A stretch of DNA of 56,751 nucleotides, taken from a virus (lineage: Duplodnaviria > Heunggongvirae > Uroviricota > Caudoviricetes). Location: the IMG/VR virus record IMGVR_UViG_2778261162_000006, positions 1 to 56,751 of that record; one strand, 5' to 3'. The position numbers were made by a program, and so were the translations under genes. Below the pieces are notes generated by a model. It saw only the letters and a program-made list of their open reading frames with translations, had not been told where the DNA came from and searched no databases. Shown here in pieces: positions 4,044 through 44,201 of the stretch. Numbering within the stretch: position 1 is the first letter of the stretch; each line of letters begins with the position of its first letter.

Positions 4044-4170
4044 TTTGTTCTCCACGTATATGCGCTGCACCGCGCTGAATTCTGGTAAAAAGAATCCCTC
4101 ACCATCCGGCGATTATTGAGTAAATTACGTTTCCATAAATGCCCCCGCAGGGGCATTTGCAGTAATGAAA

Positions 4171-5060: not shown

Positions 5061-5423
5061 TTAACGACCTGCTGCGCGGAGTTTTCCGTCAGGTTCACCG
5101 GCAAGAGTCAGTAACTGTCCCTGGTCTTCCTGCAGAATAGTCAGGCGACCACCGCGATTGACATACATCGGCGTTTCGGTGGTGTCTTCTTCGGAAATTT
5201 TCCCGCGGTTAGTCGGGCGAACATATGAGAGTTTGTGTTTGATTTTCACACGGTTCTCATCAAATGGTTCGATTTCCAGGTTGAGTGAGACCTTACCTTT
5301 GGTTTTCGTGTTCATCACACCGGAAGCGACTTCACTGAGAACTGCGCCGATTTTGGTTTCAAATACGCCGCCGTCCAGCTCCCCGATAAATGCCTGCACA
5401 TCAGTACTGCGTTCGCTAGCCAT
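5061..5423 (-). CDS. YfdP-like hypothetical protein (120 aa)
   Basis: Start at internal ATG (5423) preceded by GAGGAG; the longer 226-aa reading extends into a GC-rich structured region with implausible composition. Confidence 0.65.
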   Translation of the reverse strand: MASERSTDVQAFIGELDGGVFETKIGAVLSEVASGVMNTKTKGKVSLNLEIEPFDENRVKIKHKLSYVRPTNRGKISEEDTTETPMYVNRGGRLTILQEDQGQLLTLAGEPDGKLRAAGR

Positions 5424-5891
5424 TTTGCTGCTCCTCATCATATCGACCCTGCAAGGCCGATTAGTTTCTCCACAAAACAGAGAAGAACACCTGCGGTGGC
5501 AGCCGCCCGGATGGATTGGGTTATGAGCCCGTCGTCCGGTGATGCTCTTCTCTGTTTTGTAAAAAGGACGGTACCAGCCGGAAGCAAGGGTACAAACTGG
5601 TACCTCCAGGACTACACACAGCATAAAGTTGTGGTGCCGGGTGCCTCCCGGTGCCTGGCGAAGGTTGCACACCAGACGGGTGGGTATCCACAGAAGGTCG
5701 ACTGTCAGCCTCAACCTTAACCCGCGTGCGCTGAGCCGCATTCACCACAACGCTAAGGATTCTCTCTGGTTAAAAATACTTAGCTGTTATGTGCCTGCTT
5801 TTAGCCACATCAGGCGAGGTGGACCTGGTTATTCCCCAACAACAAGGATTCGGTTAATCTGGTTATCCCCAACAACGCAAAAGGAAAAGAA

Positions 5892-6326
5892 ATGTCCGGT
5901 AATATCTACACGCTGTACAAATCCCACTGTGAAAATGTTGGAAAGTATCGGGGCATTGAAATCAGTGGGGTAGTGTCATCAGTCGAAATAAGCAAAGTGG
6001 AATCAAGGGCAACATTACTTACTCTTCTGGACCTTGTCTTACATGAGCACCGGAAGAAATTCGGCACTCCCTATAATCAGTTGAATGGGAAAAAGGCTCT
6101 GGTTCACCTTATTCTGATGAAGCATCACTGGATGCCAAAACAGATTAATGAGATGAAATTTGATGAACTTCTTCTTTCAATTCAGGATGAACTCACACTT
6201 GATAAAATAAGCGTAACCGCCCAGAAATTTTTAGATTATCGAGACTGGAGATCACAAATTCATCATTTTGATGATTTTGACGAAAATGAATGGGATCCTA
6301 ATTTGTCTGCACAATATCTAAAGTAA
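5892..6326 (+). CDS. Hypothetical protein (144 aa), AT-rich moron opposite to the early-left operon
   Basis: ATG with AAGGAAAAG RBS; low GC versus flanks; preceded by a 34-nt tandem repeat. Confidence 0.65.
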   Translation: MSGNIYTLYKSHCENVGKYRGIEISGVVSSVEISKVESRATLLTLLDLVLHEHRKKFGTPYNQLNGKKALVHLILMKHHWMPKQINEMKFDELLLSIQDELTLDKISVTAQKFLDYRDWRSQIHHFDDFDENEWDPNLSAQYLK

Positions 6327-6519: not shown

Positions 6520-6564
6520 GTTATCAGTTACTTGTTGATGGGGACCAGATTGTTAAAGAGCTAA

Positions 6565-6586
6565 GCGTCCTGTAGGGCGCTTTTTT
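6565..6586 (+). terminator. Rho-independent terminator (plus-strand orientation)
   Basis: GCGTCC-TGTA-GGGCGC hairpin followed by TTTTTT. Confidence 0.55.
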
Positions 6587-6665: not shown

Positions 6666-6702
6666 GGGTACATTATGTATCTCAAAGGTACATTGTCAAG
6701 TA
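6666..6702. promoter_or_regulatory. OL-like operator sites
   Basis: GGTACATTATGTA and GGTACATTGTCAAGTA; same GGTACA/TGTACC half-sites as the cI-cro intergenic region. Confidence 0.55.
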
Positions 6703-44073: not shown

Positions 44074-44201
44074 CTGGTTGAGTATACAGTAGTAGACTTT
44101 GAGCGACGAAAGAAAAGGCTGTGTCTAGGGTCGCTCCCGAAAATCCGTACACCTCGACGGACTGGTACAGCCACTACAGTAGAGGACGCTGAGGTGTGCG
44201 T

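Follow-up and report, generated by a model that had tools for sequence, protein, structure and literature searches.

What is carried by the long GC-rich spacer that separates a yfdP-like gene from an ECs1072-family gene in an Escherichia coli lambdoid prophage? The spacer (468 bp, 5424-5891) lies in the 56,751-nucleotide stretch analyzed here (the window; IMG/VR record IMGVR_UViG_2778261162_000006), a segment of an E. coli chromosome containing a prophage of the SfIV/SfV/e14 type. An original prediction, made from the sequence alone, had described 5440-5760 as non-coding and proposed that it specifies a structured regulatory RNA. We find that the region is a minus-strand non-coding RNA, a divergent and unannotated member of the STnc100/PasD prophage RNAs and not a new class. 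The observation behind the original prediction is confirmed and its interpretation was right in substance. The conserved block is larger than proposed, extending from about 5822 to 5464, and both the strand and the fact that the family had already been described had been missed. To the known family our analysis adds a pseudoknot and a distribution over two genomic contexts. The spacer has a 100% identical counterpart in an E. coli chromosome, and its identity to Shigella phage SfIV is 99.8%. Spacer-like DNA occurs in 2781 of 5426 complete E. coli genomes, with at least 80% of the stretch present in 1626, and is labelled there as 'hypothetical protein', 'ymfH' or not at all.

Two covariance models identify the RNA. 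The Rfam model of STnc100 (RF02076) matches the minus strand at 5781..5559 over its full length (model positions 1-206) with 38.4 bits, below the family's gathering threshold of 47 bits, and with E = 1.9e-6 in a 1.4-kb search and 7.5e-5 in the whole window. Using two motifs of 14-20 nt, we gathered relatives from viral contigs and built an independent covariance model, R1, from 37 aligned cores of their common type, excluding the subfamily to which the window belongs. R1 finds a single match in the window, at 5749..5630 on the minus strand (53.9 bits, E 3.5e-10). The match is full length and every pair in the model helices is a standard one. On homologous sites R1 scores 53.9 bits in SfIV, 52.2 in ST64B, 37.5 in K-12 e14, where helix H5 is damaged, and a weak 17 in mEp460; at this position mEp460 and Stx2a_1447 have a third variant, which is more diverged. 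The invariant family motifs are present in the window core, GUGGUGAAU at its 5' end and CACCGGGAGGCACCCGGCACCA at its 3' end. Among the features that define the family, the window RNA possesses helices P1, H1 and H5 with their motifs, helix H4 with pseudoknot P2, and a closing hairpin of the Rho-independent terminator type. It shows no recognizable sigma-70 promoter of its own 6-10 nt before P1, where most late-region members have one, and it does not occupy the late-region site between the Q/pR' unit and the lysis or NanS genes. No Rfam family other than STnc100 is found in the region at E<=1, retron msr families included. A retron-like RNA had already been judged unlikely, and the neighboring genes, the part of the window examined for a reverse transcriptase, are yfdP/Q/R-like, ECs1072-family and cI-like repressor genes with no reverse transcriptase among them.

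The conserved core spans 5751..5628 of the minus strand (124 nt) and contains four helices and a pseudoknot. P1 closes the core by pairing GUUGUGGUG (5751..5743) with CACCACAAC (5636..5628). H1 is formed by GCGGC (5739..5735), a UCAGC pentaloop and GC(A)CGC (5729..5724). The 5' strand of P2, AAGGUUG (5718..5712), follows and precedes a variable insert. H4 is an 8-bp stem of GUCUGGUG (5677..5670) and CGCCAGGC (5660..5653) whose loop holds the 3' strand of P2, CAACCUU (5667..5661), making the pseudoknot. H5, CCGGG-AGGCA-CCCGG (5651..5637), is the 5-bp hairpin into which the GGTGCC/CCGG dyads of the original prediction (5633-5655) resolve, and it adjoins the 3' strand of the 9-bp closing helix (5628-5636 / 5743-5751). 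The family as a whole follows the same layout: P1 is GUGGUG/CACCAC with outer pairs alternating between G-C and A-U and is followed by an AA linker; H1 is a 6-7-bp stem with one bulged nucleotide and a UNNGC pentaloop; the P2 5' strand and the variable insert come next; and H4, an 8-9-bp stem with the P2 3' strand in its loop, is followed by a UCA linker, H5 and the P1 3' strand. Beside these covarying stems stand invariant junction and loop nucleotides (GAAU, the UNNGC pentaloop, AGGCA and UCA). Relative to the common type, three pairs of the window H1 are changed from C-G to G-C with all pairs kept.

Alignment of the relatives shows that the fold is maintained by compensatory change. Covariation was assessed by counting pairs against shuffles in a set of 124 distinct sequences from about 100 genomic loci in many genera of Enterobacterales. 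Paired cells make up 97.0% of the total, and double-sided changes are found in 9 of 18 pairs (101 cells). Neither the covariation score nor the paired percentage was reached in any of 500 shuffles, and slid registers are 47-57% paired. Covariance models cannot represent pseudoknots and P2 was therefore tested directly. At least 6 contiguous base pairs between the strand that follows H1 and the H4 loop can be formed in 87% of 60 representatives, which have 41 distinct loops, compared with 21% for mismatched partners and 17% for shuffled loops. The minus strand is settled because G.U pairs account for 20% of H4 stem pairs, because natural variants of P1 and H5 are changes to G.U pairs only, and because the U-run following the terminator-like hairpin T1 is on the minus strand. 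The minus-strand fold of the core together with T1 has z = -2.67 against shuffled controls.

The block conserved in the window's subfamily extends upstream of the core. Directly 5' of it, the minimum free energy (MFE) fold contains hairpin P0 (GCUAAGgauu... / ...CUUAGC; 5752..5784, minus), a position at which the helix of relatives is longer, has inserts and is compensated in sequence. The 5' edge of the block is the hairpin CCACCUCGCCUGAUGUGG (5805..5822, minus), kept in E. coli, Salmonella and Lelliottia loci despite differing sequence further upstream. On the RNA strand of the Stx2a_1447 locus (L162, 2860-2960) and of locus L032, two T-arm-like hairpins, CUGGUUCAAUUCCAG and GUCCGUUCGAUUCGGAC, are present upstream of the core; they lie within a long helix that is compensated relative to the short P0 of the window. 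ARAGORN, run on 5300-6000 for tRNA- or tmRNA-like genes, returned 0 genes.

Two terminator-type hairpins lie downstream of the core, and it is these, not the core, that correspond to the two most striking dyads of the original prediction. Core and first hairpin are separated by UUUAUGCUGUGUGUAGUC (5610..5627, minus), which is mostly unpaired in MFE and centroid folds, matches by position the variable 'seed' stretch of the family and coincides with the region that varies most among its members. T1 (5561..5609, minus) resembles an intrinsic terminator, with a stem of about 13 bp (GGUACCAG...CUGGUACC) and UUUUU at 5565..5561, and aligns with the terminal hairpin of the Rfam STnc100 model. The two GGTACC palindromes (5570-5575 and 5599-5604), correctly picked out at the outset, are the arms of an 8-bp hairpin, GGTACCAG / CTGGTACC (5570-5577 / 5597-5604). 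The loop of T1 exceeds 8 nt, for which reason a simple terminator scan missed it. In ST64B/L032 the T1 stem is unrelated in sequence, yet a hairpin followed by CUUUUUAC is found at the same position. T2 (5472..5560, minus) is a long branched hairpin that ends about 48 nt before the start codon of the yfdP-like gene and contains the inverted repeat reported originally as 14 bp with a loop of about 55 nt. The repeat is real; its perfect arms measure 15 nt (5472-5486 / 5546-5560) with 59 nt between them, and extended 25-nt arms (5472-5496 / 5536-5560) are 84% complementary. No other perfect inverted repeat in the 56.7-kb window reaches 14 nt with a loop of 3-100 nt, and none occurred in 40 Markov-1 random windows. 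For a 147-nt minus-strand segment containing T2 the folding energy is -62.5 kcal/mol (z = -5.96). Read on either strand, T2 has an A-run to one side of it and a U-run to the other, and on sequence grounds it resembles a terminator for both directions of transcription; alternatively, it could serve as an RNase III-type stem within the 5' leader of the yfdP-like gene. Compared with ST64B and e14, T2 shows one double change from G-C to A-U and several changes from G.U to G-C that are compatible with a minus-strand RNA only. The end of the yfdP-like leader (5421..5473, minus) comprises GUGGAGAAAC (5473..5464), a small hairpin, the Shine-Dalgarno (SD) sequence GAGGAG (5437..5432) and the ATG (5423..5421). 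In the window GUGGAGAAAC follows T2. In relatives without T1 and T2 it directly follows the core, as does a similar sequence in Buttiauxella (L220, L221) and Pantoea (L191, L199, L264), which suggests that T1 and T2 of the E. coli and Salmonella phages are an inserted module.

Relatives of the RNA fall into two genomic contexts. The viral contigs contain 172 elements, 151 of the common type and 21 of the window's type. Most elements of the common type have a sigma-70 promoter (TTGAC-N17-TAAAnn) ending 6-10 nt before P1, and most have a strong terminator. They have the Q/pR' region on one side and NanS esterase or holin genes on the other, in many cases with stx2, methylase or TerB genes upstream, and with few exceptions their identified neighbors belong to the late region. 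Because many members are found between Q and holin genes, we suspected that the family represents the pR'-tR' late leader, an analogue of lambda 6S. This was ruled out: the canonical pR'/qut (TAACGATGGG)/tR' unit directly follows Q, and the STnc100-type unit forms a cassette of its own, farther downstream. Elements of the common type sometimes stand in tandem, with up to 4-5 copies in a row. Superficieibacter and locus L265 have tandem arrays of 3-5 STnc100-type units at intervals of roughly 220-600 nt (L265, L193, L211, L194). STnc100 copies have been noted 75 nt downstream of stx2 (PMC12370729), and PasD, located near Q, is structurally homologous to STnc100 (bioRxiv 10.64898/2026.05.13.724894). 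PasD1 and PasD2 are Northern-confirmed small RNAs (sRNAs) whose stability is Hfq-dependent, as seen in a delta-hfq strain, and which have many partners in data from RIL-seq, a ligation- and sequencing-based mapping of RNA interactions (PMC8550237).

The 21 elements of the window's type are, wherever neighbors could be identified, upstream of yfdP/Q/R-type genes and/or downstream of cI-like repressors, in sense orientation. Across E. coli, Salmonella, Buttiauxella, Lelliottia and Pantoea, this type usually sits downstream of a same-strand cI-like repressor at the head of the early-left operon; a group of three (L012, L067, L255) has another setting, next to a large phage gene in divergent orientation. 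The window's type carries additional conserved hairpins on its 5' side, and no promoter is recognizable. In Stx2a_1447 roughly 780 nt between cI and yfdP are without an annotated gene and hold the operators with pL, then a long leader, and after it the variant of the core, T1 and T2. In Buttiauxella (L220, L221, L223), Lelliottia (L174) and Pseudescherichia (L175) the first open reading frame (ORF) begins 29-63 nt after P1 with no terminator in between, and the core in these loci is a true 5' untranslated region. A few GC-rich genomes outside the enterobacteria (L168, L185, L258, L266, L278; Streptomyces, Vicinamibacterales and others) contain the 20-nt motif as well and lack the RNA's 5' half. 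These occurrences look like chance matches, and short contigs from non-enteric assemblies (L178, L200) may be contamination.

The position of the RNA in the window points to transcription from the left promoter. Right of the ECs1072-family gene follow a ymfJ-like ORF, a pL-like promoter, the cI terminator and a cI-like repressor; to the left, the downstream order of leftward genes is yfdP-yfdQ-yfdR...xis-int. In the window two insertions, the ymfJ-like gene and the ECs1072-family gene, separate pL from the RNA. The pL-like promoter (TTGACA-16-CATAAT, 6672..6699, minus) agrees with the consensus at 11 of 12 positions, directly follows the cI terminator and is the nearest strong promoter from which the RNA could be transcribed. 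A minus-strand scan of 5782-6110 found no promoter-like site, and within the 5782-5891 spacer only weak matches to a promoter of its own exist, none of which passes the scan; the corresponding upstream block of the subfamily is likewise devoid of one. At 6550..6580 (minus) the hairpin GCGCCCUACAGGACGC, which on the plus strand reads as a terminator, is followed after 3 nt by an exact rrn-type boxA, GCUCUUUAACAA (6561..6550). This boxA follows the pL-like promoter by about 105 nt and precedes both the ymfJ-like ORF and, by 800 nt, the core. The chance expectation for the exact 12-mer is about 0.007 in this window, and six related loci have the same boxA at an equal distance from the core. Judged from its sequence, the boxA is possibly a Nus-factor antitermination signal for transcripts passing T1 and T2. 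As a lead, pL-initiated complexes might be Nus-modified, which could explain read-through. SfIV has no annotated N gene and we identified no N-like protein. In K-12, ymfH is in one iModulon with ymfJ, xisE and intE (PMC12132413), as would be expected if the region is transcribed together with the left operon and some transcripts read through. The literature on ymfH and on ST64B sRNAs yielded no direct transcript mapping.

Our judgment tips, by a modest degree, towards an RNA with two combined functions, in which the leader released at the terminators would act as a riboregulator while the same site would serve as an attenuator ahead of yfdPQR-xis-int. Leftward transcription from pL after induction would traverse the element and a fraction of the transcripts would stop at T1 and T2, leaving an RNA with its 3' end near 5561-5565. 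By analogy with PasD, the released RNA would be an Hfq-associated riboregulator that works by base pairing, its conserved core serving as scaffold and its unpaired stretch 5627..5610 as seed. T1 and T2 would concurrently attenuate transcription into yfdP-yfdQ-yfdR...xis-int. We infer in this way the transcript ends, the dependence on Hfq, the targets in trans, the extent of read-through and any role of the pL-leader boxA. Several points weigh against this proposal. The Rfam score stays under the gathering threshold. There is no recognizable sigma-70 promoter and the RNA would therefore be silent in a repressed lysogen. T1 has just five U residues and a large loop, which bears on its termination efficiency. 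Hfq binding or stabilization and trans targets were shown only for PasD1 and PasD2 (PMC8550237), outside the window's subfamily. The terminator-less loci argue for a cis-acting leader role rather than a free sRNA, and an ordinary base-pairing role leaves the elaborate, sequence-invariant core unexplained.

The main rival is a leader that acts purely in cis, which we consider unlikely on balance while taking it seriously. Here the core would bind RNA polymerase, Nus factors or another phage or host protein, as lambda nut and HK022 put do, and would decide whether transcription from pL reads through T1 and T2 (or Rho sites) into yfdPQR-xis-int, with the terminated RNA as a by-product. The subfamily usually resides in the pL leader, the slot of lambda nutL/N and HK022 putL/nun, has no promoter of its own and in other genera places its core directly before the first ORF; the cI-yfdP interval of Stx2a_1447 consists of leader RNA and T1/T2 with no annotated gene; and expression of xis and int requires passage of two terminators in phages that, like SfIV, are without an annotated N gene. 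The signals in the leader cut both ways. An exact boxA is present in it, and several relatives have a UGCUCUyu motif 13 nt upstream of the core; the boxA-like motif beside the core, however, is found in some relatives only, overlaps the 3' arm of P0 and is absent from the pre-core sequence of the window and from ST64B. No binding partner of the core is known and HK022 has no match to the model, which places the RNA outside the put family. Late-region units with the same core end in terminators and yield discrete sRNAs, as seen on PasD Northern blots (PMC8550237), and therefore the core alone does not abolish termination. A broader form of the idea, to which we assign a rather low probability, sees the core as a factor-binding module, nut/put-like or riboswitch-like, that programs the elongating polymerase or the fate of the transcript where the early-left operon of N-less lambdoid phages begins. 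Such a module might act together with the boxA of the same leader, and the late-region STnc100/PasD sRNAs would then be promoter-equipped, domesticated copies of the leader module. In another rival reading, the pseudoknotted core could be an aptamer and T1, or the ribosome-binding site in other genera, the expression platform. The 5' leader position, the invariant junction and loop nucleotides, the covarying stems, the pseudoknot, the tolerated insert and the downstream terminator or ribosome-binding site are all in keeping with a riboswitch, and alternative partners for the P1 strands exist upstream (CACAUAAC) and downstream (UUUUGUGG). We nevertheless hold this to be very doubtful: the stretch that separates core from terminator varies greatly in length and sequence and shows no conserved antiterminator pairing, the genes found with the RNA are of mixed kinds (holins, NanS esterase, yfdP, RdgC-like), H1 and H5 are near-invariant in sequence, which is unusual for aptamer stems, and there is no ligand candidate. 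An antiterminator pairing between the H1 3' arm and the terminator 5' arm is possible in some E. coli members and was rejected as not general in the family.

The remaining explanations dispense with a functional RNA. That the dyads form a DNA-level element, such as an operator or a recombination or replication site, or are chance GC-rich palindromes, draws on the perfect palindromes such as GGTACC, on the long inverted repeat that reads alike on both strands and on the plus strand, which folds well too (z = -2.76). Substitutions in the relatives nevertheless preserve G.U pairs where the opposite strand, or a DNA cruciform, would have A.C mismatches, and the covariance models match one strand only. 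The statistics of the inverted repeat, like E-values of 1e-10, rule out chance, and together these explanations are scarcely credible. An equally improbable alternative is that the region codes for protein, be it YmfH, an N-terminal extension of YfdP as in SfIV_34, or the plus-strand SfIV_35. The original prediction had found no convincing ORF. Mechanical ORFs do cross the region, namely a 226-amino-acid upstream extension of yfdP and others of 114, 75 and 74 amino acids; all of them fail conservation tests. SfIV_34 and SfIV_35 (plus strand) are annotated over the region in SfIV and ymfH in K-12, and the frame upstream of the yfdP ATG is open through T2 and T1 in the window, ST64B and Stx2a_1447. 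The open extensions, however, vary in length and start codon (318, 267 and 186 nt), and e14 has an in-frame stop inside T2. Differences from ST64B are spread 5/5/10 over the codon positions and change 11 of 37 residues. The core is 1 nt longer than that of ST64B (120 nt in the window, 119 nt in ST64B) and many non-triplet indels occur across the family. No overlapping ORF belongs to a Pfam or NCBIfam family, the ST64B and mEp460 annotations contain the short yfdP only, the yfdP ATG has its own GAGGAG SD sequence, and the GTG start of ymfH in the e14 copy is the first paired triplet of P1. The annotated ORFs (K-12 ymfH, SfIV_34/35) are thus probably spurious, and relatives do not share a conserved protein here. 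The K-12 ymfH overlies the e14 copy of the RNA (L002, 3502-3813). Overexpression of ymfH was reported to trigger the RcaT toxin of retron-Sen2 (bioRxiv 10.1101/2020.06.22.160242), and the active agent could be the RNA, not a protein; that the RNA is sensed by, or counteracts, host defence would be a relative of the broader idea above and shares its rather low probability.

The genes and other elements around the RNA are as follows. The left border of the spacer is the yfdP-like gene (5061-5423, minus; phrog_204) and the right border the ECs1072-family gene (5892-6326, plus; NF033230, phrog_5286), a phage-associated protein gene with no assigned function that had been called a moron. At 12 or more other loci a homologue of this gene stands divergently beside an STnc100-type RNA, and late-region copies upstream of holins are among them. 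Two direct repeats, CTGGTTATTCCCCAACAAC (5826-5844) and CTGGTTATCCCCAACAAC (5860-5878), occupy the interval from the RNA block to the ECs1072-family gene, spaced 34 bp apart and conserved among related loci; they might bind a regulator or belong to a promoter region. A weak model match (12 bits) at 4063-4164 (minus) falls in the yfdQ-yfdR spacer. Its small hairpin, GCCCCUGCGGGGGC, directly follows T2 in loci without yfdP and yfdQ and is probably a recombination boundary or a small terminator. At gathering thresholds Rfam reports only two RNAs in the window, a tRNA gene (1369-1441, plus; 71.8 bits) and an int-alpA RNA (44118-44185, plus; RF02996, 45.5 bits, exceeding its gathering score), which are likely markers of the region where the prophage is attached and of another, second integrative element.

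Among known RNAs, the closest counterparts are STnc100 (RF02076) and PasD1/PasD2 of Salmonella and of enteropathogenic and enterohemorrhagic E. coli. They share with the window RNA the P1/H1/H4/H5 layout and the invariant motifs, followed by a variable stretch and a terminal hairpin with a U-run, and they too reside in lambdoid prophages of Enterobacterales. The window RNA differs in its sub-threshold Rfam score, the flipped but compensated H1, the extra 5' hairpins, the absence of its own promoter, the second long hairpin after T1 and its place as an early-left operon leader instead of a late moron slot. Lambda 6S RNA is a short terminated leader transcript of the pR'-tR' unit. StxS of Stx phages, reportedly described by Sy and colleagues in 2020, is likewise said to be a short terminated leader transcript that doubles as an RNA. 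The resemblance lies in a promoter-proximal RNA that ends at an intrinsic terminator passed by antiterminated polymerase and whose product can act in trans; the difference is that the late-region relatives of the window RNA are not the pR' leader and that the window copy belongs to the pL operon. The resemblance to HK022 put and lambda nut consists of a pL-leader position upstream of terminators, no annotated N gene and a boxA in the leader. HK022 put is about 70 nt long with two stem-loops (PMC9378689), whereas the family core has 100-135 nt, four helices and a pseudoknot. An R1 search of HK022 20-40.7 kb, which covers the early and late regulatory regions, gave no match, and membership in the put family was ruled out by this result together with the differing size and fold. 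A second copy downstream of pR, comparable to the putL/putR pair, was not found in the window even with filters off. AgvB/AsxR, Esr41 and IsrK are also small RNAs of lambdoid prophages, often from the Q-to-lysis region and with variable pairing regions. They are simple hairpins without a conserved pseudoknotted 5' domain, and the window contains no sequence or Rfam match to them. The C/A-rich stretches that follow the core in some family members resemble GcvB target mimics, as far as their sequence suggests.

Recognition of the region as an RNA removes the spurious ORFs ymfH, SfIV_35 and the SfIV_34 extension, and adds an unannotated non-coding RNA subfamily to prophages of the SfIV/SfV/e14/ST64B type and to some Stx2 prophages. 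The STnc100/PasD scaffold emerges as a covarying pseudoknotted fold found across Enterobacterales prophages in two settings, as autonomous late-region sRNA units and as a leader of the pL operon. These two settings raise the testable question of what binds the invariant core, and with it the question of how lambdoid phages without N carry polymerase past two terminators to xis and int.

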